Source: Minisyncoccota bacterium (GTDB lineage Bacteria; Patescibacteriota; Minisyncoccia; UBA6257; JAGOQP01). Taken from it: a stretch of 64,000 nucleotides of DNA. The DNA is taken from NCBI GenBank assembly GCA_041674185.1, contig JBAYWE010000004.1, positions 186 to 64,185 of the forward strand, read 5' to 3'. The translations under genes were made by a program, and so were the position numbers. Under the pieces are notes generated by a model that had not been told where the DNA came from, searched no databases, and saw only the letters and a list, made by a program, of their open reading frames with translations. Below, piece after piece: positions 255 through 52,023 of this stretch; position 1 is the first letter of the stretch; every line of letters begins with the position of its first letter.

Positions 255-1739
255 TTATACTTTATGTTTCTTTTTCATTTCTCCCTCAATCCCCGCTTCA
301 CATTCCTGCGCTCGTTCTTTTGATTTTATATATAATTTTTTAATTTCATCTTCATTGAGAAGATTTAATTCCTTTGCTCGTGCAATAAGTAATTCTGTGA
401 CATTTTTTTGAGGATCATCTAAAATATCTTCCAATAAGATACCTAAAATCCACCCCAGTCGCGGACTTGGTTTTAAACGCAGAGCTTCCATAATTTGAGT
501 CCCATCGACCGCAAGCATTTTGGGAGAAATAGGATCGCGACGTACTTTATCAATCATAAATAAAAGATGGCGTAATTTATACGGCACTGCTTTGGGCACC
601 CCCGATCCAATTCGATCTGCTTCTCTAATTTTTATAAGATCATCTACATTTTCAATCCCCACCCGATTAATAAATCTCCGTACCCCCGCTTCGCTCACTT
701 CATCAACGTTATAATAAAATAGATGATTTTTGACTAAATGCGTTACATAAGAAACAATCTGTTTTGAAAAACGTAACCGATTTAATATCCCCCGTGTCAT
801 ATGCGCTCCCACATATTCATGTTTATAAAATGTGCTGTTCGGGCCATCTCCTCCTTTCGTGCGTGGCTTTCCCACATCATGAAGTAATGCACCCAATCTA
901 ATTTCAAGTGCATAATTTTTATCAATCGCATACGCGAGTGCGCGAAGGTTGTGTTCCCACACGGTATAAATATGATGCTTGTTTTGTCCTACACCCACAC
1001 CCTCCAATAACTCAGGAACGATATACTCTAGTAATCCATATCGATACAACAATTCTACTCCCCAGGCACCCTGAGGAGTCATGAGTATTTTTACAAATTC
1101 ATCACGAATACGTTCTTGCGATATATTTTTTAGTGAAGGAGCGAGTGTTTGTATTGCTTCTTGGGTTTCTTTTTCTATAACCCATCCCGTTCCGAGCTGA
1201 CAAGAAAACCGGATTGCACGCAACATACGGAGCGCATCTTCATGAAATCGTTCCTGTGCATCCCCCACTGCACGAACTATTTTCTTTTCTAAATCTTTTT
1301 GTCCTGCATATAAATCAATAATTTTATATTCTGGCTTTTCATCATGAGTAATAAATTCAATCGCCATTGCATTAACTGTGAAATCTCTCCGCGATAAATC
1401 TTCTCCCACGGTGGTGACAAAGGTAACAGTCTCAGGATGACGAGAATCTACGTATCCCGATTCTGTTCTAAAGGTGGTGACTTCAATTATCTTCACCTTT
1501 TCATTAGATGTTTTTATCTTCACCCCCACGGTTCCAAATTTATTTTCGTATACACTTTCAGGAAATATTTCTTGGATCTGCTCTGGAGTAGCGCTTGTGG
1601 TGATATCCCAATCTTTTGGCTCTATCCCTAAAATTATATCTCGCACACACCCCCCCACGATATATGCCAAAAAACCTCTCTCTTGGAGAGTTCGTATAAT
1701 ATCTCGCACTTCAAAAGGAACAACTATATTGATTTGCAT
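255..1739 (-). CDS. cca: CCA-adding tRNA nucleotidyltransferase / poly(A) polymerase family with C-terminal HD domain
   Basis: N-terminal GGCVRD nucleotidyltransferase motif and a downstream HD-domain region (LHDVGK). I chose the internal ATG (MQINIVVPF) as start so the CDS does not run into the adjacent tRNA. Confidence 0.8.
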   Translation of the reverse strand: MQINIVVPFEVRDIIRTLQERGFLAYIVGGCVRDIILGIEPKDWDITTSATPEQIQEIFPESVYENKFGTVGVKIKTSNEKVKIIEVTTFRTESGYVDSRHPETVTFVTTVGEDLSRRDFTVNAMAIEFITHDEKPEYKIIDLYAGQKDLEKKIVRAVGDAQERFHEDALRMLRAIRFSCQLGTGWVIEKETQEAIQTLAPSLKNISQERIRDEFVKILMTPQGAWGVELLYRYGLLEYIVPELLEGVGVGQNKHHIYTVWEHNLRALAYAIDKNYALEIRLGALLHDVGKPRTKGGDGPNSTFYKHEYVGAHMTRGILNRLRFSKQIVSYVTHLVKNHLFYYNVDEVSEAGVRRFINRVGIENVDDLIKIREADRIGSGVPKAVPYKLRHLLFMIDKVRRDPISPKMLAVDGTQIMEALRLKPSPRLGWILGILLEDILDDPQKNVTELLIARAKELNLLNEDEIKKLYIKSKERAQECEAGIEGEMKKKHKV

Positions 1740-1779
1740 ATCGTATATAGTATACACTGAATCCACATAGATTTTCCAC

Positions 1780-1852
1780 GCACCCGTAGTGAAATGGATT
1801 ATCACAACTGCCTTCGAAGCAGTTATTGGGGGTTCGAATCCCTCCGGGTGTA
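1780..1852 (+). tRNA. tRNA-Arg (anticodon TCG)
   Basis: Cloverleaf folded by hand: acceptor GCACCCG/CGGGTGT, D-stem GTGA/TCAC, anticodon stem ACTGC/GCAGT with loop CTTCGAA, T-loop TTCGAAT, discriminator A. No encoded CCA. Confidence 0.8.
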
Positions 1853-1860
1853 CAATTTAA

Positions 1861-1885
1861 AAAACCGTCTATATGGCGGTTTTTA
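1861..1885 (+). terminator. Rho-independent terminator hairpin after tRNA-Arg (AACCGTC-TATAT-GGCGGTT followed by a T run)
   Basis: Stem-loop flanked by an A run upstream and T run downstream, possibly bidirectional. Confidence 0.55.
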
Positions 1886-2023
1886 AATTAAAAACCCGAG
1901 AACGCAAACTGCTTTGCGTTCGTGAGGATTCGAACGACGGAGTGTATGCGAACAGCTGTGAGCATAACGAGTCGGTGGTCAACCCGAGTTGAGCGACGGC
2001 GAAACGAGAGGTGAGACCGAATC

Positions 2024-2043
2024 CCTGCCTACCGGCAGGCAGG
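2024..2043. repeat. 20-bp near-palindrome CCTGCCTACCGGCAGGCAGG (copy 1 of 4)
   Basis: Identical or near-identical 20-mers at 2024, 35556, 51376 and 51966. Here it interrupts the duplicated tRNA-Arg 3' end. Confidence 0.9.
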
Positions 2044-2140
2044 CCTCCGGGTGTACAACTATAAAAATACATCATTTTCTTAAATGGTGTGTTTTTATAG
2101 TTAGCATATCGTAGATTCGAAGGGTATTCGAAAAGTATCC

Positions 2141-2176
2141 AAAAGAAATAAGAAAAGAGCCGCTCGTGAGCGGCTC
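2141..2176 (-). terminator. Rho-independent terminator of the 2193..3041 gene
   Basis: Hairpin GAGCCGC-TCGTGA-GCGGCTC followed on the minus strand by TTTTCTTATTTC. Confidence 0.6.
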
Positions 2177-2192
2177 AATTTCAATGTGCAAT

Positions 2193-3041
2193 TTAGAGGA
2201 AAAAAGTAACTTTCGCAACAACCAATTTTTCAGTGAAGTTGTAGAACAACTTCAGGTGACTGTTGGTCGAATATTGATATGCCGCACCAACCATAGTGCG
2301 AACAGTATTTGTAGTACTTGAATTTGCCTCAAAATCTCCTTGTAACCATACGCTAATCTTATCAGTAAGCTTAGCCTGGTTCTGCGCGTAGAATTCCACA
2401 GGAGCGCTAGAGCTTGTTGGCCGAGAGACAATCCCTCCTTCTACATTCAATAGTGAATGAAAAGCACTTTTTGCCATCAATCCAAATCCTTTTTTGTTTC
2501 CCCGCGTCTGCAAGAAATATCCTATATGAGTGCCTTCGCTTAATGTTACATCAACCGATGCGGAAACATTTCTATTTCCATCACAGTCAAATACTGAAAT
2601 TCTCGCCGTTACTTTTTTATCATTAAATACATCGTCATACTGCATTGAGATACCATCATCCAGCACAGTAAATGAATTTACTGATGACGCATATGCAGTC
2701 TGCGACATCATATGGGGTGCTGGAAATAAATACCAGATTGGGTCTAAGAAACGACCAGCGGTAACTGTGAAATTACCGAATGTTTTTGACACATTCGCTA
2801 GTTGAATCTTACCACTTGAGAAATCGTGGCGAAATTGTACCTTAATTTGATCATTTGAAAGATCTACATGCAAACGCATATAATCAAATTTAAACTGATC
2901 CTTACTTACATCCTGTGTCGGAATATTCATTCCAGCAAAGACATGAGCTTCGGCATTTATACCATTCAGATTAAATGTTTGCGCAGAAATAAATGATGTA
3001 GATAAAATAACAAACAAAGCAACTAATACTAACTTTTTCAT
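2193..3041 (-). CDS. Secreted protein with signal peptide and C-terminal aromatic residue; possible outer-membrane beta-barrel; function unknown
   Basis: Start at MKKLVLVALF, which has an AAGAGGA Shine-Dalgarno sequence upstream. Cleavable signal peptide, alternating amphipathic pattern, C-terminal FFL. Confidence 0.5.
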   Translation of the reverse strand: MKKLVLVALFVILSTSFISAQTFNLNGINAEAHVFAGMNIPTQDVSKDQFKFDYMRLHVDLSNDQIKVQFRHDFSSGKIQLANVSKTFGNFTVTAGRFLDPIWYLFPAPHMMSQTAYASSVNSFTVLDDGISMQYDDVFNDKKVTARISVFDCDGNRNVSASVDVTLSEGTHIGYFLQTRGNKKGFGLMAKSAFHSLLNVEGGIVSRPTSSSAPVEFYAQNQAKLTDKISVWLQGDFEANSSTTNTVRTMVGAAYQYSTNSHLKLFYNFTEKLVVAKVTFFL

Positions 3042-3266
3042 TTTTTTCCTCTTATATAATGTGATAGTTGATTGAGACCACCCACACGATGAGCTCAATT
3101 AACTATCACACGCTTTTCAATGTTCTATGAGTGTATTATATCATAATAAGTCATAAAAGTCAATATATACAAAAATGAATAAAATAGCCCTAAAAACAAA
3201 CCCACCCCCATAAACTGTTGAAAAAATGAAAAGAATATGAGACAATCTTCCTTAAGATAAGAACAA

Positions 3267-3339
3267 GCGCCCATAGCTCAGCTGGTAGAGCAGCTCCCTC
3301 TTAAGGAGATGGTCCAAGGTCCGAATCCTTGTGGGCGCA
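3267..3339 (+). tRNA. tRNA-Lys (anticodon CTT)
   Basis: Acceptor GCGCCCA/TGGGCGC, D-stem GCTC/GAGC, anticodon loop CTCTTAA, T-loop TCCGAAT, discriminator A. No encoded CCA. Confidence 0.7.
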
Positions 3340-3367
3340 CAACATATATTCTAAATAGAATATATGT

Positions 3368-3439
3368 GCGGGTATCGTATAGTGGCTATTATGCGTCCTT
3401 GCCAAGGACGAGACGGCGGTCCGATTCCGCTTACCCGCT
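3368..3439 (+). tRNA. tRNA-Gly (anticodon GCC)
   Basis: Acceptor GCGGGTA/TACCCGC, anticodon stem CGTCC/GGACG with loop TTGCCAA, discriminator U73 typical of Gly. The T-loop is the unusual TCCGATT. No encoded CCA. Confidence 0.75.
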
Positions 3440-3638
3440 CAAGATGAAAAATTACCCTTCTGTTTAAAGAGGGGTGATTTTTTATTTATGTATGCGGGTA
3501 AAACAAATAAACTGCTTTATTTGTGTGCGAAATCGGACGACGGAGCATATGCGAGTAGCAACGAGCATGGTGAGTCGGTGGTTAGACAAACTTTTGCGAC
3601 GGCAAAAGTTTAGTCGAGACCGATTCCGCTTACCCGCT
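3440..3638 (+). repeat. tRNA-3'-end-linked structured element, copy B (attached to tRNA-Gly)
   Basis: A terminator-like hairpin comes first. The left arm GCGGGTAA [ACAAATAAA-CTGC-TTTATTTGT] GT GCGAAATCGGAC equals the reverse complement of the tRNA-Gly 3' end with the CTGC hairpin inserted after nt 8. The core is homologous to copy A (CGACGGAGCATATGCGA..GAGCATGGTGAGTCGGTGGT..GCGACGGCAAAAG). The right arm GACCGATTCCGCTTACCCGCT is a direct copy of the tRNA-Gly 3' end. Confidence 0.75.
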
Positions 3639-3701
3639 CAAGATATAAAAATATAAAACACCCCCAAAGGGGGTGTTTTATATTTTCCTTATTTTTTATC
3701 A

Positions 3702-4451: not shown

Positions 4452-4724
4452 TTAAGGAATTGCCTGAAAATCTTTTAATGATTGATCGATATCCTTCAAC
4501 GCACGTTCATCTTGTATATATTGAGAAACATCTGAAGCGGCTTGATCTGTCTTTTGCTCATCAGCACCCATGGTTCGTAACTGTTGTACTTTATCCTGTT
4601 CACGAGAAAACGGCTTGAGCATAAGCAAGACACCTAAAATTATTACCCCTACTAATCCAAGCCATATATACAACACTCGTTTCTTATGTTTCGAAAGAGC
4701 GGGTGTTTCTATTGATTCTGTCAT
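4452..4724 (-). CDS. Small single-pass membrane protein, hypothetical
   Basis: ORF with one transmembrane helix (LYIWLGLVGVIILGVLLML), directly upstream of and co-oriented with 3702..4439. Confidence 0.4.
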   Translation of the reverse strand: MTESIETPALSKHKKRVLYIWLGLVGVIILGVLLMLKPFSREQDKVQQLRTMGADEQKTDQAASDVSQYIQDERALKDIDQSLKDFQAIP

Positions 4725-4868
4725 AATAACCTTTATTTAAGTGGTCTTTTTACTCTTCTGAGTACTTTTTTAGTATAGCATATACTAAGGTGTTTTTCAA
4801 TAAAAAAGAGGGGTCCTTACCTCTCTATACAACGACCCGTGGATTAATCAAAAAATCCCAATCACTTC

Positions 4869-35494: not shown

Positions 35495-35719
35495 CGCAAA
35501 CATTAAATCCTAATCCACCGGGAATTTCACATCGCACTTCGTGCTCTTTAGAAACCCTGCCTACCGGTAGGCAGGCCTCGGTTTCTAACATCCTTCGAAT
35601 TGTTTTCCTACACGGGGAACTACAAGTTCCCCGACCCCCTCCGATTCAAATCCCGCGCGAGATCTTTCATCATATAAAATAAAAATATCCCTACTAGCGT
35701 AAGGATATTTTTATTTGTG
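35495..35719 (-). repeat. tRNA-3'-end-linked element, divergent copy E (attached to tRNA-Glu)
   Basis: Read on the minus strand after tRNA-Glu. A terminator hairpin (AAAATATCC...GGATATTTT) comes first. CGGGATTTGAA follows, which is the reverse complement of the tRNA-Glu T-arm. The 20-bp palindrome sits inside the inverted repeats TTAGAAACC/GGTTTCTAA. The degenerate duplicate of the tRNA-Glu 3' end (AAATTCCCGGTGG) closes the copy. Confidence 0.5.
35556..35575. repeat. 20-bp perfect palindrome CCTGCCTACCGGTAGGCAGG (copy 2 of 4)
   Basis: Exact palindrome flanked by the extra inverted repeats TTAGAAACC/GGTTTCTAA. Confidence 0.9.
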
Positions 35720-35793
35720 TGACCCCACCGGGATTTGAACCCGGGTTACAGGAATGAAAATCCTGTGTCCTGACCAGGCTAGACGATAGGGCC
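35720..35793 (-). tRNA. tRNA-Glu (anticodon TTC)
   Basis: Acceptor GGCCCTA/TGGGGTC, D-stem GTCT/GGAC, anticodon stem CAGGA/TCCTG with loop TTTTCAT, T-arm CCGGG-TTCAAAT-CCCGG, discriminator A. No encoded CCA. Confidence 0.75.
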
Positions 35794-43499: not shown

Positions 43500-46400
43500 C
43501 TATACAGGTAAATATTCACGATAAACTCGTACCGTTTCTTGATAAATTGATTCTATTAAACGTTCTGCCTGTATCTGTTCCACAAAACCTTTTTGGATTA
43601 AAAGTAATCTTACATTCTGACGAATACGTGCTTTTATAGTCTCATTATTTGTCCAATCAATTGCAAGATCGCGGCGTATTCGCTTTGTGAGATCTTTTAC
43701 AAATTCTTTTATATCAATCCCTGCATTTTTAAGATCTGGATCTGCAATAAGAGTATCATAAAAAACAATCTCTTCAGAAGACAAGCCAAGATTTACACTT
43801 TCTTGATCTAACTTTTTTATTTCATCCGCTATCTCAAGGAGGCGTTTTATAATCTCTGCCGAGCTAATAACATTGTTCTCATATTTTTCTATAAGATCAG
43901 TAAGAAGAGTGATCATTGTTTCATATCTTGCTTTATTTTTTCTCATTCGTGCAACAATCTCTTTATTAAGTAATTTACGAATCACGTCGACTGCAAAGTT
44001 CTTAAACTTCACCTTCTTTATTTCTTCGCTAAATCGCGGATCAAAAATAGAAATGGTTTCTTTTTCTCCATCTTCATTTGCAAATAAATCTATAACTCCT
44101 TCTGCCTGTATTGTGTCCTGAATTAAATTGCGAATAGCACTTTCGGTCTCTTCAGGAAATATAGCATGAGGCACAACTGTTTGTTTATTAATTGCACCAC
44201 GAATTGCTTGAAAAAACTGTATATCAGTAGCGATGTTCATTGCTTCTTCTCCGGGCATAACTAGCGCGTGTAATTTTGAGAGTTTTGAAACTGCACCTAT
44301 ATATTTCATCTTTCTATCATCCGAGAGAATCCCATGATCTGAGATTACTTCGTTGATACTAGCTTGAAATAATTCCACCAGTTCAATGCCTTTCTTCTTT
44401 TTCCATTCTGAAAAAGAAACATTTCCAAAGAAATCACTTGTTGTCTGATAAAGTTTTTTCATCTCTAAAATAACCTCATCAAGAGGGATGAGTGCGTTCC
44501 GCTGAACATCCGAATCATAAATGGCAAGCGCCTTTTTTAGGTTATCTGCGACACCGATATAATCAACAATAAGTCCACCTGGTTTGTCTTTATAAACACG
44601 ATTTACACGGGCAATTGCCTGCATAAGCCCATGATTCTTGAGTGGTTTATCAAGATACATGGTATGTAGGTTTGGGACATCAAATCCAGTAAGCCACATA
44701 TCACATACGATAGCGATTTTTAGTGGATCATTTGTTTTCCTAAAATGTTTTTCTAACTTCTTTACGTCTCGTTCAGTTTGAATGTCTGATGCAAAATCTT
44801 CACTTTTTGAAATAACTACTGCACACTCTGGAGCCCCTGGTATTTTTTTAATTGCATTATACATTTGAACCGCAATAGAACGGCTCATGGTAACCACCAT
44901 CGCTTTACCTTCAATAGGACGAATAGTGTAGTGAGCAACTATATCTTTTGCAATTTGTTCAATACGGCTTGGTGCACCAACTACTTTTTCTAATACTGCC
45001 CATTCTTTTTGAGCTCGCATTCTTTCGTCAATCACAATCTCACCCAAAAGATCATCGAGTTTACTATCAATAAATCTATCCGCTAAATGAAGTGGAATAA
45101 GACGTCCTTCATAGAAAATTGGAACCGTCGCACCATCTTTTACTGCCTGTCCGATTTTATATGAACTCACAATATCTCCAAATACACGAACTGTATCGTG
45201 ATCATTATGAGAAATGGGGGTTCCTGTTACACCCAAAAAGCTCACGTGAGGAAGTGCGCGACGGACGTTTCCTGCAAGCATACTATATTGAGTGCGATGT
45301 GCCTCATCAGTAAGTACAATAATATTTTCTCTCTCAGTAAGAACATTGTGTGCATCTGGATCTTCTTGAAATTTTTGGATTGTAGTAAAAATAAGCTCAC
45401 TTCCCAGATGAGAGAGTTTATCTTTTAGATCTTTTATTGTCGTGGCTCGTTTTGCGAGAGTACCATATCCTGTACGACTAAATGTTTTAAATAACTGATC
45501 ATCAAGATCTTCGCGATCAGTAAGAAACACATATGCAGGACTTTTTAGTTCCGGAATACTTTTTGTCTTATTTACATAAAAAACCATAGAGAGTGACTTA
45601 CCAGATCCTTGCGTGTGCCAAAAAACACCGATCTTTCGATCTTGATTACCAAGCACTGAATGAATTGTGCTTTCAATAGTTTTGTTTACTCCATAATATT
45701 GGTGATAAAGTGCCATCTTCTTTGTATAAGTCACCGCATCTCCATCACTATCCGCCTCAAAGATGGTAAAGTTTTGAATAACATCAAGTAAGCGGACTTT
45801 ATCAAAAAGACCTTTTGTTAATACCTCAAGTTGAGTGGTGTCTCTTGGTGAATCATTTTCTAATTCAATTCCCTTCCATGTTCCGTATCTTTCCCACGAT
45901 GAAGATATTGTTCCGTGTCGAGCGTCAGTTAAATCACTTAGACAAATAATTTGGTTATATAAAAATAGTTTTGGAATTTCTTTTTTGTAATATTCAATAT
46001 CTCGATATGCTTGTCCAATTGATGCTTGTTCACGAGTGGGGCTTTTAAGTTCAAACACTCCAAGGGGGATACCATTTACAAATAAAACAGCATCTAGGCG
46101 ACATATATTATCAATCCCCTGAACAGTGAATTGATTCACTATAAGAAACTCATTTGCCTCTGGGTTTGAGAAATTAATAAGCTTTACCAATTCCGTTTTT
46201 TCTTCTCCGTCTTCTTTCCATGTTTTTTTCACTCCTTCGGTAATATTAAAATATATCTCTCTATTGCCCAGCATAAGATCGGGGTTGTGGAAACTAGAAA
46301 TATCATTCACTACCTGTTCTGCCTGCATTTGGGGAAGTTGTGGATTTAAACGACGAACAGCACCAAGGAGATGATTTTTTAGCACAACCTCACGGAAGTT

Positions 46401-46523
46401 TTCACGTTCCGCATTGGGTTGTCCTGGATTTATCTCTGGACCATATAAGTACTCATAACCCTGGCTTTGTAGCCATTGGATAAGAGATTGTTCTGTTAAG
46501 TTATTTTCGTTAAGGGGGTTCAT
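43500..46523 (-). CDS. hsdR: Type I restriction enzyme R subunit (HsdR)
   Basis: 1007 aa. N-terminal nuclease region, SF2 helicase motifs including DEAH (VLTDEAHRTQ). Last gene of the operon. Confidence 0.85.
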   Translation of the reverse strand: MNPLNENNLTEQSLIQWLQSQGYEYLYGPEINPGQPNAERENFREVVLKNHLLGAVRRLNPQLPQMQAEQVVNDISSFHNPDLMLGNREIYFNITEGVKKTWKEDGEEKTELVKLINFSNPEANEFLIVNQFTVQGIDNICRLDAVLFVNGIPLGVFELKSPTREQASIGQAYRDIEYYKKEIPKLFLYNQIICLSDLTDARHGTISSSWERYGTWKGIELENDSPRDTTQLEVLTKGLFDKVRLLDVIQNFTIFEADSDGDAVTYTKKMALYHQYYGVNKTIESTIHSVLGNQDRKIGVFWHTQGSGKSLSMVFYVNKTKSIPELKSPAYVFLTDREDLDDQLFKTFSRTGYGTLAKRATTIKDLKDKLSHLGSELIFTTIQKFQEDPDAHNVLTERENIIVLTDEAHRTQYSMLAGNVRRALPHVSFLGVTGTPISHNDHDTVRVFGDIVSSYKIGQAVKDGATVPIFYEGRLIPLHLADRFIDSKLDDLLGEIVIDERMRAQKEWAVLEKVVGAPSRIEQIAKDIVAHYTIRPIEGKAMVVTMSRSIAVQMYNAIKKIPGAPECAVVISKSEDFASDIQTERDVKKLEKHFRKTNDPLKIAIVCDMWLTGFDVPNLHTMYLDKPLKNHGLMQAIARVNRVYKDKPGGLIVDYIGVADNLKKALAIYDSDVQRNALIPLDEVILEMKKLYQTTSDFFGNVSFSEWKKKKGIELVELFQASINEVISDHGILSDDRKMKYIGAVSKLSKLHALVMPGEEAMNIATDIQFFQAIRGAINKQTVVPHAIFPEETESAIRNLIQDTIQAEGVIDLFANEDGEKETISIFDPRFSEEIKKVKFKNFAVDVIRKLLNKEIVARMRKNKARYETMITLLTDLIEKYENNVISSAEIIKRLLEIADEIKKLDQESVNLGLSSEEIVFYDTLIADPDLKNAGIDIKEFVKDLTKRIRRDLAIDWTNNETIKARIRQNVRLLLIQKGFVEQIQAERLIESIYQETVRVYREYLPV

Positions 46524-47383
46524 GATGTGTGTATTCTTGAAACCATATCTTTTACATCAGACATCATTTCTTTTATATCTGATAAAACAGGAATTGTCGA
46601 TTTATTCCCCACAATTTCTTTTGTCTCATTTTGTCTTATATTTGTCATCGGCGATGAATAAAGTTTACCAATCGCATCTAGTATAAAATCAAGCTTTTTC
46701 TTATATTCATCATCGTCTTTATCAGAGAATAGATTCTCAACTATCTCCTTGTAAGCTTCTAGGGAACGGGCGATAGAGGCCTTAAACTCATATTCTTCAA
46801 TTAATTTTTCTCCTCGTGAATATTGTCCGCTGATAAAGATTTCAAAAAATATAATTGGAGACGTAGCTGCTAGTTTAACTAAAAAATTTATCTCAAATAT
46901 ATTTCCGCCATTAGATGTCTGCCAGATAACTATTCCAGCAACCGATAAAAGAAGAGCCATACTAGTACCGAATAACCACCAAAACCAACTCTTATTACTT
47001 AATTTTAATCCGTCTCTAACCTTATCGAATGAATTGGAAAGTTTTTCATTAGAAATAGTTCCCAATTGTTGTAGTGAAAGACTTTGGATTTCGTCACTTT
47101 TTGTTTTAAGTTCATCTACTACTTTCTTGGTTTCTTCGGTTAAGGTTTGCTGTTCCTTGGTGGTCTCTTTTAAAGTAGCAATTTCCCCAATCAAGTTTTC
47201 TAGCTCTTCCTTCTTTTTAGGAATCGCATCTATATTTTCTTTTTGTGCTTGTACTTCAGCAATTAATGTATCTATTACTTGTTTTTGGGTGATAAAATTT
47301 TGTACTAAAGCGTTAAGATCTCCTAGCGCCCTTAGGTTTTGATCTATATCTGCTAACTTTTGTTGTACTTCTTTTGTTTTCAT
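46520..47383 (-). CDS. Coiled-coil / two-TM protein embedded between hsdS and hsdR; function unknown
   Basis: About 130 aa of N-terminal coiled coil, two TM helices (WFWWLFGTSMALLLSVAGIVIW and SPIIFFEIFISG), then a C-terminal soluble domain. Overlaps the hsdR start by 4 nt. Confidence 0.5.
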   Translation of the reverse strand: MKTKEVQQKLADIDQNLRALGDLNALVQNFITQKQVIDTLIAEVQAQKENIDAIPKKKEELENLIGEIATLKETTKEQQTLTEETKKVVDELKTKSDEIQSLSLQQLGTISNEKLSNSFDKVRDGLKLSNKSWFWWLFGTSMALLLSVAGIVIWQTSNGGNIFEINFLVKLAATSPIIFFEIFISGQYSRGEKLIEEYEFKASIARSLEAYKEIVENLFSDKDDDEYKKKLDFILDAIGKLYSSPMTNIRQNETKEIVGNKSTIPVLSDIKEMMSDVKDMVSRIHTS

Positions 47384-47387
47384 AAAT

Positions 47388-48701
47388 TTAAATTAATTTT
47401 GCTAATAATTGATCTCTGGATTGTTTTAATTTTTGATTTTCGAGGAGAGATTCTTTTATAAAATTAAACATCGGTTTTATAGTTCCATTAAAACTATAAG
47501 TAATGTTTTCTAGAGGTATTAACATTTTATAATTTTCTATTAATTGCTTATTAATATGTTGCTGGGCACCACCAGATGCTCCTGAAATTATATCTAAAAT
47601 ATTATTTTTGATACATAAATATATATATTCATTTAAAATATTATTTTCGTCATATATACCAACAACTGATTGATTAGCTGTTGATTCAATCTCAAGACGA
47701 CTGACTTGCCCAAGTGTGGCTCCAGTTATAGCAAGGAGGGTTGTCCCTGAATTCATTATGCTTGCATTAGATTTTTTAAGACCTGCTTCTGATATATACT
47801 CGGTTGCTTTAATAATTCTGAGGTTATTTATTTCGCCAGAATTGATCCATGGAATGCTCCCTCCCCAGAATTCTTTTTTATCTCTCGATGGGGTTCCTCC
47901 TAGTGTAACGGTTGCTAATCGTGATATTTTTTTCATTTCCCACCCTTCAGGAATTTTTCCCATTTCGCTATCAATCATTTTTACTTTTTCATAACCTGGA
48001 AAATGAAAGTTTACAAACCATTCATTAAAAATAGTTTGTGCTGTGGTTTCAAGATTTTTAATTATCTTATTGTTGTTTTCAATTTTCTCATCATATGCAC
48101 TTAAAATTTCTGAAATCTTTTTTTGGATTGAGAGGTTTGGAATATTTATCTCGTAATCACGCAACTGTTCTAAAGATACATTTTTTATAGTACTACCAGA
48201 AGCATTATTTGTTATATGTTTTTTAAACCTATTATCTAATAGTACATAATAAAAATAATTTAAATCAAAACCATCACTAATATTGATATAGGAAACACTT
48301 TTACCTAGTATACATTTCTCGTTCTTGTATTTTGCTAAATTACCGATTGTTCCATTAATAGAAAGCAAAAGGGTTCTTTCAGTTAAATCTTTTTTGTGTT
48401 TAATGTATTCTGACTCATTTACTTTTTTTGTATCTTTTTTTATTGAAACATAACCATTATCTAAATTATTTCCATTAATAAAATAATATTCCCCATTGTC
48501 GTCATATACTGGAGTCCCATGTAAACCATCACCAATTCTACTGGTAACATCTATTAGTTTATAAGTGGCCCTCGGTATCTTTTCTATTTGTTTCAGTAAA
48601 TTGCTCATATTTTTGATCTGTGGATAACTCTTGATTTTGGTGGTGGTGAATGTTATACTCCTTTCATACCTGCCCGAGGTCAATTCGGGATAACTTTCCA
48701 C
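47388..48701 (-). CDS. hsdS: Type I restriction-modification specificity subunit (HsdS)
   Basis: Two target-recognition domains separated by a conserved central repeat, ending with the conserved C-terminal coiled region. 437 aa. Confidence 0.75.
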   Translation of the reverse strand: MESYPELTSGRYERSITFTTTKIKSYPQIKNMSNLLKQIEKIPRATYKLIDVTSRIGDGLHGTPVYDDNGEYYFINGNNLDNGYVSIKKDTKKVNESEYIKHKKDLTERTLLLSINGTIGNLAKYKNEKCILGKSVSYINISDGFDLNYFYYVLLDNRFKKHITNNASGSTIKNVSLEQLRDYEINIPNLSIQKKISEILSAYDEKIENNNKIIKNLETTAQTIFNEWFVNFHFPGYEKVKMIDSEMGKIPEGWEMKKISRLATVTLGGTPSRDKKEFWGGSIPWINSGEINNLRIIKATEYISEAGLKKSNASIMNSGTTLLAITGATLGQVSRLEIESTANQSVVGIYDENNILNEYIYLCIKNNILDIISGASGGAQQHINKQLIENYKMLIPLENITYSFNGTIKPMFNFIKESLLENQKLKQSRDQLLAKLI

Positions 48702-48712
48702 AAAAACCTGAC

Positions 48713-49378
48713 CTAGTCAGGTTTTTGTTTTTCTACCTTGGCAATATGCTTTTTAATATTCTGTGCATTTATGACTAAATCAGCCGACTCTCTGAATTTT
48801 GTCAAAATATATCCACCCTTCACTATAATCACTTTTTTACCTTTTCGTTTTAAGTAATTATTTAAATACACAAAATCAGCATCTCCAGAGAAAATACAGA
48901 AAGTATTATAGTGTTCAAGCATCTTTAGCGCATCTACAGAAATCTCTACATCAAAATTTGATTTTCTGATTTCTATAAATTTTTTGCCATCTATATCTGT
49001 TTTAACATATTTATCAGGAATATATTCGCCCGTCTCAAAATAATGCCTAATTTTTTGAATGTCTTTAGTCATTACATCTCTTTTGCCAAAAACTTTTCGC
49101 ATAACATAGGTAAAACTGAGAGACTTTTGATTTTTAGGATTTTCTCCATAGTAAATTCTCGCCCTCTCACTAAAAATATCCAAAAATGATTTAAGTTTTT
49201 CTAAGTCTATTGATAACTTCTCATCGGGAGCGAGGAGTTTATTCTCCCAGTCTTGATTGTCATTTTGAAACCACTTATTTACGTTTGAGAAATCGACAAA
49301 AGTGAAAATCTTCCCGTAATCTTCGGTGATCTGTAGCTCATCTTTGATAAACTTCTTTTTTAGGTCTTGCAAATCCAT
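48713..49378 (-). CDS. NYN-domain (LabA/PIN-like) predicted ribonuclease embedded between hsdM and hsdS
   Basis: NYN signature segments (IFTFVDFSNV..., FDVEISVDA..., CIFSGDADFVYL..., KKVIIV). Confidence 0.55.
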   Translation of the reverse strand: MDLQDLKKKFIKDELQITEDYGKIFTFVDFSNVNKWFQNDNQDWENKLLAPDEKLSIDLEKLKSFLDIFSERARIYYGENPKNQKSLSFTYVMRKVFGKRDVMTKDIQKIRHYFETGEYIPDKYVKTDIDGKKFIEIRKSNFDVEISVDALKMLEHYNTFCIFSGDADFVYLNNYLKRKGKKVIIVKGGYILTKFRESADLVINAQNIKKHIAKVEKQKPD

Positions 49379-49382
49379 ATAT

Positions 49383-51182
49383 TTAAAATCCTAACTCTTT
49401 TAGATTTTTCTCAATATCTTTTTCTAATTCGCGGCCTTTTGTGAATGCTCCCCGCAATTCTTCTGAAAATTTTATCATCTTTTCTTCAAATGTAACTCCA
49501 TCATCCTCAACGTCTGCAAGTCCAACATAGCGTCCAGGAGTTAATGTATATCCATTTTTCTGTATTTCTTTTAAAGTTGCTGATTTACAAAAACCTGAAA
49601 TATTTTTATATTCCCCAACCTCTTGTTCACCCCGCCACGCACGAACGGTGTCCGCAATTTTTTGAATTTGTTCTTTATTGAAAATCACTTGTTTACGAGA
49701 AATTTGTTCAAAAGTATCTCGTGCATCAATGAATAATGTTTCTCCAGTGCGTTTACGAAAACGATCACCATTTTTGTTTCTAGCCAAAAACCAAAGGGAT
49801 ACAGGAAGCGAAACATTATAGAAAAGTTTTGATGGACATGAAATAATAACGTCAACCATATCTGCTTCAATAAGTTTTTGTCTTAGTTCACCCTCTTTAC
49901 CGGATACAGCAAGGGCACCATTTGGCATAACGAATCCAGCATTACCATTTGGTGCTAAATGGTGAGCAAAATGTTGTACCCACATGAAATTCGCATTGCC
50001 ACTCGGTGGAGTGCCCAATGTTATGCGCGGATCATTATCGGCAAGTTTGGATGGTTCCCAATCTGCATTAAATGGAGGATTAGCAATAACAAAATCTGCC
50101 TGCAAATGAGGGAATTTGTCTTGATAATAAGTATTTCCTAATTCAATTTTTCCAGATAGACCACGAATTGCAAGGTTCATTTTACAAAGTCGCAAGGTTG
50201 TTGGATTGCTTTCTTGTCCGTTAATTGCAAGTCGTGACGAATCCTGATGATGATCTCGCAAGAACTCACCCATGGATACAAACATTCCTCCACTTCCACA
50301 TGCGGGATCAAGTACTCGAGCATTTTCATATGGTTCAAGAATCTCTACTAAAAGTTTAACAATAGATCGTGGGGTAAAAAATTCTCCTCCACGCTTACCT
50401 TCGGATGAAGCAAATTGACCAAGAAAATATTCATAGATACGTCCGAGGATATCCTTCTCTCTATCAAAGTTGTGATCAAACGAAATACGAGAAAAGATAT
50501 TTATAAGTTCACCAATTACTGCATGATCAAGAGTTGTTCTTGTATAAATTTTAGGAAGCACTCCTTCAAGTTCTGTTAAGTTATCACTCTCAATATAATC
50601 CATTGCCTTATCAAGAATCTGTCCAATATCTGATTGCATTGTTTTTGTCTGCAAATATTCCCAACGAGATTTTTCGGGGACATAAAATACTCCAGCGCTT
50701 TTATAAAAATCTTTTGTCTCAAGAATTTGAGCTCGAGCTTTTTCATCTGCAACATAAAATTCTTCATTTTTAGGATCATGAGTGAGCTCATCAAGTTTCT
50801 CGCGTCTTTTATAGAATGCATCTGAAATATATTTTAAGAAGAGAAGACCAAGTACAATATTTTTATACTCGGAAACATCAATGTTACCACGAAGCTTATC
50901 TGCTGCGGCCCAAAGTTCTTTTTCAAAATCAAGATCTTTATGATGATTTTTTTCCAAAACCTTCTTTGTTGTCTTCTTTTGTTCGCCTCTAATGCGTTCT
51001 TGGAGTTCGGGGGGGAGAGTTGACCTAGGAATGAGGTAGTTGCGACCCATTTTCTGAGCCGGTATCTTTCCTTCGGAAATCTGTTTATGCACCGCAATAC
51101 GGCTTATCCCGAGCATTTTTGCCATCTCTGCAGAGGTTATGAACTGTGATTTGTGTGTTTCCATGATCTTATAATAGCACAA
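49383..51182 (-). CDS. hsdM: Type I restriction-modification methyltransferase subunit (HsdM) with N-terminal helix-turn-helix extension
   Basis: N-terminal excisionase/MerR-like HTH (SAEMAKMLGISRIAVHKQISEGKIPAQKMGRNYLIP), HsdM N-domain, SAM-binding motif I (LDPACGSGGM), motif IV NPPF. Confidence 0.85.
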   Translation of the reverse strand: MCYYKIMETHKSQFITSAEMAKMLGISRIAVHKQISEGKIPAQKMGRNYLIPRSTLPPELQERIRGEQKKTTKKVLEKNHHKDLDFEKELWAAADKLRGNIDVSEYKNIVLGLLFLKYISDAFYKRREKLDELTHDPKNEEFYVADEKARAQILETKDFYKSAGVFYVPEKSRWEYLQTKTMQSDIGQILDKAMDYIESDNLTELEGVLPKIYTRTTLDHAVIGELINIFSRISFDHNFDREKDILGRIYEYFLGQFASSEGKRGGEFFTPRSIVKLLVEILEPYENARVLDPACGSGGMFVSMGEFLRDHHQDSSRLAINGQESNPTTLRLCKMNLAIRGLSGKIELGNTYYQDKFPHLQADFVIANPPFNADWEPSKLADNDPRITLGTPPSGNANFMWVQHFAHHLAPNGNAGFVMPNGALAVSGKEGELRQKLIEADMVDVIISCPSKLFYNVSLPVSLWFLARNKNGDRFRKRTGETLFIDARDTFEQISRKQVIFNKEQIQKIADTVRAWRGEQEVGEYKNISGFCKSATLKEIQKNGYTLTPGRYVGLADVEDDGVTFEEKMIKFSEELRGAFTKGRELEKDIEKNLKELGF

Positions 51183-51375
51183 ATTAATTTGGAATGCAAG
51201 TTAACATAGGTTAACCACACTATGGTAAAAGATCACTGTTATATGTGTATATTATTCAATACTCAATAATGATTGTTCTATAAACATAGGAGGAGAGTTC
51301 GCCCGCGAGTCTTTTTGTTGCAACAAAAAGCTCTGGGCACCAACTCGCTGTACTCACAGCTGTTCGCACATGCTC

Positions 51376-51395
51376 CCTGCCTACCGGCAGGCAGG
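51376..51395. repeat. 20-bp near-palindrome CCTGCCTACCGGCAGGCAGG (copy 3 of 4)
   Basis: Lies between copy C of the tRNA-linked element and an extra partial core copy (51318..51370). Confidence 0.9.
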
Positions 51396-51421
51396 CGTCA
51401 TTCGAATCATCTAAATAGAAA

Positions 51422-51599
51422 GGAGATTCGGCTACAAGTCGTTTTATCTTCCGCTAAAACGCTCGCAGCCCGCCCCTCGTGGCACTCCTTACCACCTCGT
51501 TCGTCGCGCAACACTACGGTCTTCGAATCCCCCACGTGGATGAAGCAGTTCATTCACTCTCTCCGCAAACAAAATACCCCCTTACGGGGTACTTGTTTG
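51422..51599 (-). repeat. tRNA-3'-end-linked structured element, copy C (attached to tRNA-Ser)
   Basis: Read on the minus strand after tRNA-Ser. A long hairpin comes first. The left arm CGGAGAGAG [GAATGAA-CTGC-TTCATCC] ACGTGGGGGATTCGAAGACC is the reverse complement of the tRNA-Ser 3' end with the CTGC hairpin inserted. The core is homologous to A and B (GACCGTAGTGTTGCG...GAGGTGGT...GCGAGCG...). The right arm is GTAGCCGAATCTCC. A second partial core copy (GAGCATGTGCGAACAGCTGTGAGTACAGCGAGTTGGTG) lies beyond the palindrome. Confidence 0.65.
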
Positions 51600-51686
51600 C
51601 GGAGAGGGGGAGATTCGAACTCCCGGGGGCGGTTAAGCCCCACAGCTTTAGCAAAGCTGCACAATAGACCACTCTGACACCTCTCC
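51600..51686 (-). tRNA. tRNA-Ser (anticodon GCT)
   Basis: Acceptor GGAGAGG/CCTCTCC, anticodon stem CAGCT/AGCTG with loop TTGCTAA, long variable arm GGGGCTTAACCGCCCCC, T-arm GGGAG-TTCGAAT-CTCCC, discriminator G. Confidence 0.8.
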
Positions 51687-51691
51687 ATATT

Positions 51692-51937
51692 TTATTGTAA
51701 ATTATACTTTCTCTTTATCTCTTCACGTTTATATCCTTTTTTGTATTCTTTTTCAAGGCAACGAGCATCTTCTTCTGTTTTACATTCTATATATTCTAAA
51801 AGTGTTAATGGTATTCTATTTTTTAATGACTGAGTGTGTCCAGCGTTATGCTCTAAAATTCTTCGCGAGACATTATTTGTCTTACCAATGTATATCCCGC
51901 AATCTTTCTCACTTTTTAAAATATATACAAAGTACAT
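51692..51937 (-). CDS. Standalone GIY-YIG nuclease-domain protein (YhbQ/UPF0213-like, 81 aa)
   Basis: YFVYILKSEKDCGIYIGKTNNVSRRILEHN matches the GIY-YIG catalytic motif (GIY ... YIG ... R ... E ... N). There is no DNA-binding extension. Confidence 0.65.
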   Translation of the reverse strand: MYFVYILKSEKDCGIYIGKTNNVSRRILEHNAGHTQSLKNRIPLTLLEYIECKTEEDARCLEKEYKKGYKREEIKRKYNLQ

Positions 51938-51951
51938 AGTTATATGTAATT

Positions 51952-52006
51952 CTGCACAATAGACCCCTGCCTACCGGCAGGCAGGACTCTGACACCTCTC
52001 CATATT
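51952..52006 (-). pseudogene. Duplicated 5' fragment of tRNA-Ser (nt -5 to +30) interrupted by the 20-bp palindrome
   Basis: AATATGGAGAGGTGTCAGAGT [CCTGCCTGCCGGTAGGCAGG] GGTCTATTGTGCAG. It matches 51657..51691 exactly outside the insertion, then diverges into the GIY-YIG gene. Confidence 0.8.
51966..51985. repeat. 20-bp near-palindrome CCTGCCTACCGGCAGGCAGG (copy 4 of 4)
   Basis: Inserted between positions 16 and 17 (D-loop) of the duplicated tRNA-Ser 5' fragment. Confidence 0.9.
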
Positions 52007-52023
52007 AACTTGCTCACATAATA

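Follow-up and report, generated by a model that had tools for sequence, protein, structure and literature searches.

Phages, genomic islands, and integrative and conjugative elements (ICEs) that integrate at tRNA genes carry tyrosine integrases and cross over in the T-loop or the anticodon loop, and cis-mobilisable elements (CIMEs) are their integrase-less derivatives. Integrative elements and CIMEs reportedly use tmRNA genes as well as tRNA genes. In Patescibacteria, group I introns are present at position 35/36 of tRNAs, and a survey of 95 complete genomes found no group II introns (PMC13011429). Here, we analyze a 64,000-nt stretch of DNA from a Minisyncoccota bacterium (the window; GCA_041674185.1, contig JBAYWE010000004.1, positions 186 to 64,185), in which several tRNA genes are followed by small elements that contain an inverted and a direct copy of the last ~20 nt of the tRNA beside them. 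These elements are 150-200 nt long and have no open reading frame (ORF) of their own. The DNA is chromosomal, has a GC content of 35-39%, and belongs to Candidatus Paceibacterota (Patescibacteria, or candidate phyla radiation, CPR). According to Pfam, its 64 ORFs are ordinary housekeeping genes and a type I restriction system.

Our tentative reading, and the one we favour, is that these are non-autonomous cassettes that insert at the T-loop, leave the tRNA intact by duplicating or supplying its 3' end and terminator, choose their target by identity over its last ~20 nt, are gained and lost by recombination within the shared segment, and carry small RNAs with a selected fold. The layout of the elements, the covariation of their cores, and the comparison of filled and empty sites in relatives bear on this reading and on its alternatives.

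Layout of the elements in the window

ARAGORN finds eight tRNAs in the window, and the four hosts named in a preliminary description of this DNA are confirmed: tRNA-Arg(TCG) at 1780..1853 (+; Rfam tRNA, 65.8 bits), tRNA-Gly(GCC) at 3368..3440 (+; also called by Rfam), tRNA-Ser(GCT) at 51599..51686 (-), and tRNA-Glu at 35719-35793 (-). The remaining tRNAs, for Lys, Leu, Cys, and Trp, have terminators only and no element. tRNA-Gly(GCC) is co-oriented with tRNA-Lys (3267-3340), to which the sole promoter-like site upstream belongs. The preliminary description assigned one architecture to all four hosts. This is correct for the elements behind tRNA-Arg (copy A) and tRNA-Gly (copy B), whereas tRNA-Ser is followed by two tandem units and tRNA-Glu by an element with the same layout but another core.

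As read from the sequence between 1600 and 3900, copies A and B are built in the same order: a terminator hairpin comes first and is followed by a left arm, a core, and a right arm. The T-loop, the T-stem 3' strand, and the acceptor 3' strand of the tRNA recur in the left arm as their reverse complement, which is interrupted by H1, a 9-bp hairpin whose loop reads CUGC. In the right arm, the tRNA sequence recurs in direct orientation, beginning at T-loop position ~56 and ending 3-6 nt downstream of the gene.

Copy A (1892-2058, +) lies downstream of the tRNA-Arg segment that extends from the T-loop to the 3' end and is the source of both arm copies (segment X, ~1832-1853, +). The trailer and terminator hairpin (1854..1891, +) form the apex of a long hairpin between X and the left arm, with a predicted energy of -47.3 kcal/mol from G53 to the left arm. 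The left arm (1892..1935, +) consists of three pieces, namely an acceptor-strand complement (1892-1898), H1 with its CUGC loop (1900-1921), and a complement of the T-stem 3' strand and T-loop (1922-1935). It is followed by a core (1935..2017, +) predicted to form a three-way junction of P2 (CGAC/GUCG), P3 (tandem G.A, AGC loop), P4 (GGU/ACC), and P5 (GACG loop), and by a right arm (2018..2058, +) that copies tRNA-Arg from T-loop C56 to 3 nt past the tRNA. R1, a covariance model built from 13 copies whose E-values are rough, matches copy A at 1888-2037 with 146.7 bits. The right arm had been described as a direct tRNA copy that closes the element; this holds for copies A and B, but in copy A the arm is split by a separate 20-nt palindrome at 2024-2043.

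In copy B (3494-3645, +), the trailer and terminator hairpin (3441..3493, +) again form the apex of the long hairpin, and the left arm (3494..3538, +) contains GCGGGTAA (3494-3501), H1 with a CUGC loop (3503-3524), and GCGAAATCGGAC (3527-3538). The core (3538..3620, +) has an A-U-rich P5 variant and is matched by the covariance model at 3491-3640 with 148.9 bits. The right arm (3620..3645, +) repeats 25 nt of tRNA-Gly and its flank exactly and in direct orientation, starting in the T-loop and ending 6 nt downstream of the gene, and a distal terminator follows (3648-3686, +) that is orthologous to the terminator of empty sites. GCGAAATCGGAC is the reverse complement of the unusual T-loop of tRNA-Gly, TCCGATT. 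Because this T-loop is non-palindromic and the left arm reads AATCGGA, the left arm is a true reverse complement and not a second T-loop.

Behind tRNA-Ser, a divergent unit (C1) and a truncated unit (C2) lie in tandem. The preliminary description had treated them as a single element by splicing the left arm of C1 to the canonical core of C2. C1 (51421..51598, -) comprises a terminator, a Ser-matched left arm with H1 (51570-51521), a divergent core that we call type 2, and a short right arm (51430-51421, -; CCGAATCTCC); R1 matches it at 51411-51569 with 46.1 bits. C2 (51289..51408, -) is a 5'-truncated canonical unit with a left arm reduced to its T-loop part, a core split by a 20-nt palindrome (51376-51395), and a degenerate right arm. 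It is matched by R1 at 51301-51379 with 53.2 bits, over model positions 48-131.

The element behind tRNA-Glu, element D (35515..35718, -), is laid out like A and B, with a terminator, a T-loop/T-stem complement (35657-35643), a structured core, and a degenerate right arm (35527-35515). Its core differs from that of A and B and contains a palindrome at 35556-35575, H1 is absent, and R1 does not match it. A homolog is located behind tRNA-Gly(GCC) at a related locus (L020, ~80-345, -). These two copies are the only ones known of type D, in which a rod, a contiguous left arm, the core, and a 34-nt right repeat follow each other, and the three-hairpin core, with the motifs GGGGTCGGG...CCCGTGT, GTTAGAAACC...GGTTTCTAA, and GCGATGTGA, is unrelated to the R1 core. 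Element D belongs to a second family of tRNA-tail elements. Since two unrelated cores occur within one layout, the layout is the common module, and the cores look like exchangeable cargo.

The core motifs quoted in the preliminary description occur in the window at those places only, and a 31-nt degenerate pattern taken from the window's own core has three matches in the window compared with 0 in 100 shuffles. Downstream of copy A, at ~2105-2140 (+), AGATTCGAAGGGTATTCGAAAAGTATCC resembles by eye the start of a rearranged unit, L008a (GGAATCGAAGGGTATCCGAGAAAAGTGAAC), and may be a remnant of an older unit.

The structured core and the long hairpin

RNAalifold applied to a MAFFT alignment of 13 copies gives 41 base pairs, 31 of them with compensatory changes. 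When 21 copies are aligned to the model, 95.6% of the cells are paired and 35 of the 41 pairs show compensatory double changes, whereas slid partners are paired in 33-46% of cells and 0/500 shuffles reach the observed values. The compensatory changes thus exceed the controls, as expected of a structured non-coding RNA. Judged from these alignments, the core fold is under selection, which implies that the RNA does something for the element or the cell.

In this fold, the 5' part of the left arm and the 3' part of the right arm form an acceptor-like helix with H1 as a side hairpin. The T-part of the left arm pairs with the copied T-loop and T-stem strand in helix H2, and the T-loop bases are thus paired. 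In the core three-way junction, P2 is capped by P3 (tandem G.A, AGC loop) and P4 by P5 (GACG loop). P2 occurs as CGAC/GUCG, CAAC/GUUG, or CGCC/GGCG and P4 as GGU/ACC or CCC/GGG, and the core is conserved and has purine-rich internal loops. The stems of the CUGC hairpin H1 also covary while pairing is kept, as the preliminary description had noticed. G-U pairs outnumber A-C pairs in the core, indicating that the folded strand is the tRNA strand. Rfam reports tRNA matches only, both at the gathering threshold (window and 12 related loci) and at E<=10 (positions 1700-3700).

No promoter-like site was found between the terminator and the left arm, and one element, located between tRNA-Asp and tRNA-Met (L013), has no terminator at all. 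For both reasons, read-through from the tRNA promoter is the likely source of transcription.

Three specific roles for parts of this RNA were considered and rejected, and a fourth was weakened. By eye, a small ORF that would start in the core at an A/GTG 6 nt downstream of GGAG shows mostly non-synonymous differences and different stops between A and B, and its 'start codon' is a covarying stem position. Kissing between the H1 loop (CUGC) and the P3 loop (AGC) is contradicted by loop variants that do not covary consistently and by a 20-nt insertion in the H1 loop of L009. H1 has a 4-nt loop with no fitting U33 register and is thus a poor anticodon-like arm. The proposal that the left/right helix serves as a handle for RNase P or RNase Z is weakened, because this helix often passes the discriminator into the trailer.

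The left arm also belongs to a second, larger structure. The sequence between tRNA G53 and the left-arm end, trailer and terminator included, is a single long, imperfect palindrome from which H1 branches off. This rod is present at 14/14 loci, with energies of -29 to -73 kcal/mol. Most loci have the terminator loop at the apex; in L013 the apex follows the tRNA immediately, and in L003b it falls within the acceptor strand. The complementarity between the left arm and the tRNA 3' end that had been pointed out before is therefore real but incomplete as a description, since the left arm also complements the trailer, often running past the discriminator, and makes one long hairpin with the terminator.

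The elements could also be by-products of replication or repair and not dedicated mobile elements. A break or stall at the terminator would be followed by fold-back priming, template switches through T-loop microhomology would lead into the core of another copy and back, and quasipalindrome correction would keep the arms matched, leaving a direct-inverted-direct triplication around a captured small RNA gene. The order of each locus (3' end, inverted 3' end, 3' end), the position of the terminator and the core at palindrome centres, the near-perfect pairing of the rods (605 Watson-Crick compared with 26 G-U pairs), and the variation in apex position (terminator loop, L013, L003b) and duplicated length all agree with this scenario. 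However, the tRNA offers no template for H1, which lies within the inverted copy, although both flanks of H1 match the host. In addition, the same event with the same junctions would be needed at at least 12 tRNAs, and strong purifying selection on the core fold requires a function. We consider such an origin improbable.

Gain, loss, and other insertions at tRNA genes

The 31-nt core pattern was used for the first searches. Among 185,579 species-representative genomes, it detects five true loci, all in Patescibacteria metagenome-assembled genomes, and two chance matches in GC-rich coding DNA; in a metagenome collection it detects seven loci. It has 0 matches in the IMG/VR viral contigs, and blastn with copy A against 50,697 phage records gives no match. 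The covariance model R1 then added further, more divergent copies, and orthologous loci were fetched through homologs of the neighbouring CCA-adding enzyme. Related genomes were read as fragments (8-kb loci), and the labels L003-L028 denote these loci from Patescibacteria genomes and metagenomes.

In total, ~25 copies were recovered from Patescibacteria genomes and metagenomes, beside at least 12 different tRNAs. The hosts of R1 copies are Arg(TCG), Arg(GCG), Gly(GCC, CCC, TCC), Ser(GCT, GGA), Lys(TTT, CTT), Tyr, Trp, Asn, and Asp. The core thus recurs in relatives, and all copies except L011 are directly 3' of a tRNA and on the same strand. L011 (790-1060, +), on a groundwater contig with a GC content of 0.64-0.67, is the sole canonical RNA copy without an adjacent tRNA; its left arm resembles a T-loop complement (GGGATTCGAAC), and there is no matching 3' end upstream.

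The arms follow the local tRNA far beyond chance, as had been claimed for the window: among 16 candidate 3' ends, the cognate tRNA is the best partner for 10 of 11 left arms. tRNA-Arg occurs with the T-loop variants CGAAT, CAAAT, and CGAGT in three genomes, and each variant is mirrored by both arms. The right arm starts at T-loop position 56/57 and ends 3-18 nt past the tRNA or inside it; the left junction is always in the T-loop, and across copies the duplicated length varies from ~12 to ~70 nt. Right arms are frequently decayed (L010), truncated (L012), diverged (L006), or interrupted by a palindrome (window copy A, L008, L009, L016), and tandem arrays are found in L007, L008, and window copy C. 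The palindrome insertion common to three Arg right arms indicates that those copies are orthologous.

Comparison of orthologous sites shows that elements are gained and lost. The tRNA-Arg(TCG) site is filled in the window, L009, L016, and L019, partially filled in L022, and empty in L015/L018, L020, and L021. L015/L018 represent the closest relatives, with 84-89% protein identity, and L020 and L021 carry the exact tRNA-Arg sequence of the window, so that the empty sites do not result from a different tRNA. For the same reason, a 'mosaic tRNA-Arg' that had been taken as evidence of co-conversion was withdrawn. The tRNA-Gly(GCC) site is filled in the window and empty in L016, L019, and L021, and has other insertions in L018 and L020. 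A decayed copy is present behind tRNA-Lys(CTT) in L018 only, the other relatives having none. The tRNA-Ser(GCT) site is filled in the window and gives no R1 match in L023-L028, with a short possible remnant, seen by eye, in L023. Copy B has two terminators, and each of them resembles the only one at the empty L016 site, which indicates that the duplicated host segment of copy B comprises the tRNA end, the trailer, and the terminator, ~70 nt in all.

Elements are also modular. The Arg-locus copies combine a near-identical H1 and left arm with one of four cores, namely a type 2 core, an L007a-like core, and two canonical cores whose P5 is rich in GA or in AU. The H1 of the Arg lineage is found again at tRNA-Lys(TTT), whose last 20 nt differ from those of an Arg gene at 2 positions, and the left arm is changed at exactly those positions. 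The loci of tRNA-Gly(CCC) in L006 and tRNA-Gly(TCC) in L010 have unrelated flanks and one block in common (T-arm, terminator, left arm, and core). Gain and loss at orthologous sites and exchange of cores between copies are thus shown. The preliminary description had proposed a miniature mobile element that targets tRNAs and builds its inverted repeats from the target. Its mobile character is upheld by the filled and empty Arg, Gly, Lys, and Ser sites, the tandem and decayed copies, and the spread over at least 12 tRNA species. The arms may be built from the target, or they may travel with the element while selection or conversion maintains the match.

An alternative is that the element serves the host as a cis-acting RNA switch. 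In read-through transcripts, the left arm would have two alternative partners. Pairing with the 3' half of the tRNA would unfold the tRNA and lengthen the terminator hairpin, whereas pairing with the right arm would close the element RNA. Such a switch would control the 3' maturation of the tRNA, its turnover, or read-through, and the core would recruit a factor. Such a role fits the complementarity of the left arm to the real tRNA end, which is kept in 14/14 loci, is at least equal to its pairing with the right arm, and is the better preserved of the two, the tracking of the three tRNA-Arg T-loop variants by both arms of orthologous copies, and the probable co-transcription of the element with tRNAs. 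However, only some tRNAs have an element, the set differs in each genome, and the element is missing from close relatives whose tRNA is identical. Tandem, truncated, and decayed copies, swapped cores, and a second, unrelated core are moreover the marks of a dispensable moving element. A switch is possible but, in our judgement, unlikely.

The fixed left junction and the variable right junction of the duplication resemble a target-primed insertion, and the stretch complemented by the left arm, the last ~20 nt of the tRNA as far as the T-loop, corresponds to the one covered by retroviral primer-binding sites. A retroelement could accordingly have used the left arm as a primer-binding site (PBS), as suggested in the preliminary description, or target-primed reverse transcription from a nick in the T-loop. 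This is contradicted by the lack of a CCA complement, by the complementarity entering the unprocessed genomic trailer, by the absence of a reverse transcriptase (RVT) from the window, and by the survey cited above, which found no group II introns. We regard a retron or a tRNA-primed retroelement as highly improbable and rejected this identity.

Other sequences have inserted in or near the same tRNA genes. The exact 20-nt perfect palindrome CCTGCCTRCCGGYAGGCAGG occurs at 2024-2043, 35556-35575, 51376-51395, and 51966-51985 of the window (4 matches vs 0 in shuffles), and also in L008, L009 (three copies), L016, L023, and L025-L027. It lies, without target duplication, in loops and junctions of RNA genes and RNA-gene fragments. 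Its sites are the T-loop/T-stem position 60/61 of right arms (three tRNA lineages), P2, the H1 loop, the type D core, and a 5' fragment of tRNA-Ser. It looks like a tiny mobile hairpin common to divergent Patescibacteria.

Directly upstream of tRNA-Ser(GCT), at 51692-52008 (-), is a gene for an 81-aa GIY-YIG nuclease (Pfam, 3.6e-13), preceded by a copy of tRNA positions 1-30 with 4 nt of flank and with the palindrome in its D-loop. Homologs in L023-L028 (64-86% identity) have the same arrangement with the palindrome in the same place; they lie in three other genomic contexts, beside an IF-2 or a tRNA-editing gene, and in L023 the tRNA-Ser fragment is present on both sides of the gene. From this arrangement, the unit looks like a cassette of the homing-endonuclease type specific for the 5' half of tRNA-Ser(GCT). 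Further duplications are a second copy of the 3' part of tRNA-Gly(GCC), 45 nt downstream and with a 35-nt hairpin in its T-loop (L018, ~880-1089, -), and a 24-nt copy of the tRNA-Ala 5' end ~55 nt upstream of the real gene (L010, 330-415, +). It seems that, in this lineage, tRNA genes are generally prone to insertion in their T-loops and D-arm regions. Directly after tRNA-Thr in L003 (~4480-4800, +), an ORF whose translation (…LFGMGIGLYWGEGTK…) resembles, by eye, a LAGLIDADG-type protein is a putative homing endonuclease. The type I restriction-modification operon of the window (43500-51182, -) encodes HsdR, HsdS, and HsdM as well as two extra internal genes, one for a 287-aa protein without a Pfam match (46523-47383) and one for an NYN-domain (PIN-like RNase) protein (48716-49378). 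It ends ~100 nt from the tRNA-Ser cassette array.

Possible movement and relation to known systems

We looked for an enzyme that could move the elements. Pfam detects no integrase, recombinase, transposase, or reverse transcriptase among the 64 window ORFs or within an element, and the Y1_Tnp, OrfB, and RVT families are absent from the window. TnpB, IscB, IS110-type, and Cas genes are absent from the 64 kb and from the inspected 8-kb loci. No DEDD recombinase is found beside an element in the window or in the gene tables of related loci, and there is no autonomous copy or partner enzyme in the window or in the flanks of the loci. GIY-YIG homologs are linked to tRNA-Ser(GCT) but are never inside a cassette.

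These results bear on an RNA-guided insertion by an enzyme encoded elsewhere. The core would be a protein-binding scaffold and the arms ~20-nt guides to both target strands, comparable to the bridge RNA of IS110 or the omega-RNA of TnpB/IscB, and the cassettes would be guide-only. Indeed, the scaffold ends exactly where the target copy begins, as in an omega-RNA with its guide, each of the two arms complements a different strand of the target, a shift to another target is seen only where the 3' ends are nearly identical, and the conserved core has purine-rich internal loops. Against this stand the missing nuclease and recombinase genes and the lack of an Rfam match. The arms also pair with each other, which would mask the guide, and the intact tRNA retains the 'target', so that a nuclease would cut its own genome. 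Finally, the other core family has the same arms, indicating that the arms and not the scaffold are the common part. We think guided insertion quite unlikely.

Under the cassette reading that we tentatively prefer, the inserted unit would span T-loop position ~56 of the intact tRNA gene to the displaced second copy of the 3' end, which is the right arm. Its parts would be the 3' end of the tRNA, the trailer, the terminator hairpin, the left arm (trailer and tRNA end in inverted orientation, interrupted by H1), and a core of ~85 nt. Because such a unit supplies or duplicates the 3' end and the terminator, the tRNA would stay functional. Movement would occur by recombination inside the 20-70 nt segment common to the unit and the tRNA gene. 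A unit would be lost by recombination between the two direct copies and gained at a tRNA gene whose last 20 nt are identical or almost so, and the 3'-end sequence of the tRNA would in this way set the target. The element would behave as the integrated, terminally redundant copy of a small circle; we favour this form because, in a circular unit, the end of the core abuts the tRNA 3' segment and the whole folds as the covariance model does. Read through from the tRNA promoter, the RNA would fold into the long hairpin of tRNA end and left arm, the side hairpin, and the three-way-junction core. We infer the recombination mechanism, the circular intermediate, the enzyme, and the function of the RNA from these patterns.

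Several points count against cassettes of this kind. No recombinase or other enzyme was found in the window or the inspected loci, and no free or circular form was seen. The left arm is superfluous for site-specific or homologous integration and can be read only as a fold of the intermediate or of the RNA, so that the most striking feature of the element is left unexplained. A new tRNA requires both left-arm halves that flank H1 to be re-specified, and no simple templating step does so. For recombination of the RecA type, 20-25 nt of common sequence is short. The two arms of L006 are consistent with each other (CCCT/AGGG) and differ from the resident tRNA (CCCG), which clashes with a simple history in which the right arm is the original end. 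The excess of G-U pairs in the rods over the opposite strand is weak (26 vs 15), and the long hairpin could therefore matter as DNA and not as RNA. Lastly, the sampling is biased, as every remote copy was found by a pattern derived from the window or by synteny.

We also consider a bolder form of this reading, in which the elements would be a new class of mobile element of ~200 nt without protein genes. A long hairpin would reproduce the double-stranded 3' end of the target tRNA gene within a single strand. The element would insert at the T-loop either as a small circle of single-stranded DNA or RNA or by way of one, with the help of host enzymes or enzymes acting in trans. The split left arm of ~20 nt would be a programmable target selector, and the type 1/2 and type D RNAs would be exchangeable cargo. 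We hold this to be doubtful, though conceivable.

If the elements are mobile cassettes, a gene-less element colonises essential tRNA genes harmlessly, chooses its target through ~20 nt of sequence identity or complementarity, and carries a structured RNA as cargo, a rough RNA-gene counterpart of integron cassettes in very small genomes. Features of the type of the split, target-matched arm have given rise to programmable tools, among them bridge RNAs and omega-RNAs. At the least, Patescibacteria have two new families of structured RNA, one with strong covariation and one, type D, with a putative fold and two known copies. The elements account for part of the unannotated intergenic DNA beside tRNA genes, and their presence or absence provides strain-level markers. 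They also make it possible to test how a tRNA 3' end and its inverted copy stay matched during evolution.

Identities proposed for the element fail at the defining features that were tested, and the literature search found no description of such an element, the nearest paper being that on group I introns (PMC13011429). We therefore place it outside the known kinds, in agreement with the preliminary description, and Rfam and the phage records likewise gave nothing; a partner enzyme elsewhere in the genome could attach it to a known class. A tRNA pseudogene was ruled out, as had been stated earlier. Miniature inverted-repeat transposable elements and other non-autonomous insertion sequences were rejected because the arms differ between copies and follow the host tRNA, and the duplication is not fixed (~12 to ~70 nt).

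The closest resemblance is to the integrative elements of tRNA genes. As in those, insertion affects the 3' part of the tRNA and keeps the tRNA intact, tandem arrays have older, decaying copies downstream, and the tRNA 3' end is directly repeated from the T-loop, a hallmark of such elements, in a repeat that may exceed the gene. In contrast, the cassettes are 150-200 nt long, no integrase is encoded among the 64 ORFs of the 64 kb, one family uses at least 12 different tRNAs, the duplication is variable, and the cassettes hold an inverted target copy and a structured RNA. They were thus not assigned to the tyrosine-integrase elements.

Palindrome-associated transposable elements (PATEs) of the IS200/IS605 group and TnpB/IscB omega-RNAs are similarly gene-less with hairpins, or have a multi-helix scaffold that ends at the element boundary and is followed by ~20 nt identical to the target. 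In IS200/IS605, however, the target is not duplicated and the guide is not paired to an internal complement, whereas in the cassettes the target is duplicated, no TnpA or TnpB (Y1_Tnp, OrfB) was found in the window, the left and right hairpins are dissimilar, and H1, P3, and P5 are unlike each other. Omega-RNAs of the IS200/IS605 type have no Rfam or sequence similarity to the cassettes, and this identity was rejected. The bridge (seek) RNAs of IS110/IS1111 are likewise ~150-180 nt RNAs that match both target strands and are retargeted by a change in the RNA. There, the guides are 4-7 nt long, sit in internal loops, and lie beside a DEDD recombinase gene; here, the target-matching parts are terminal, mutually complementary arms of 8 + 12 nt with no neighbouring recombinase, and a bridge RNA was likewise rejected.

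Integron attC sites and the attP(+) hairpin of CTX phage share with the cassettes a long imperfect hairpin with extrahelical branches, a stem that reproduces a double-stranded site, sequence that varies while structure is kept, and exchangeable cassettes. Unlike attC, which requires GTTRRRY/RYYYAAC (RYYYAAC...GTTRRRY), the cassettes have the T-loop-derived GTTCRAA/TTYGAAC, with ends TTCGAAC/TTTGAAC and GTTCGAA/GTTCAAA, and no IntI integrase is present in the window. Their target is a tRNA gene and not attI or dif, and their cargo is an RNA and not an ORF; an attC identity was therefore discarded. The introns of Patescibacteria tRNAs occur in the same phylum and the same kind of host gene and recognise their site by base pairing, and group IIC introns sit just after terminator hairpins. 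The cassettes differ from both in lying outside the mature tRNA, which is complete upstream without splicing, and in having a core of ~85 nt. No group I or II intron is matched by Rfam even at E<=10, in line with the earlier exclusion of a group I intron.

Finally, as in tmRNA, YrlA, and viral tRNA-like structures, the 5' and 3' ends of the cassette RNA can pair into two stacked helices, one acceptor-like and one T-stem-like, between which a side arm emerges. Membership among tRNA-like RNAs was rejected because ARAGORN and Rfam make no such calls at the elements and the T-loop bases are fully paired in H2; in addition, the helix often extends past the discriminator. Unlike these RNAs, the cassettes are many per genome, and each of them mimics a different tRNA.

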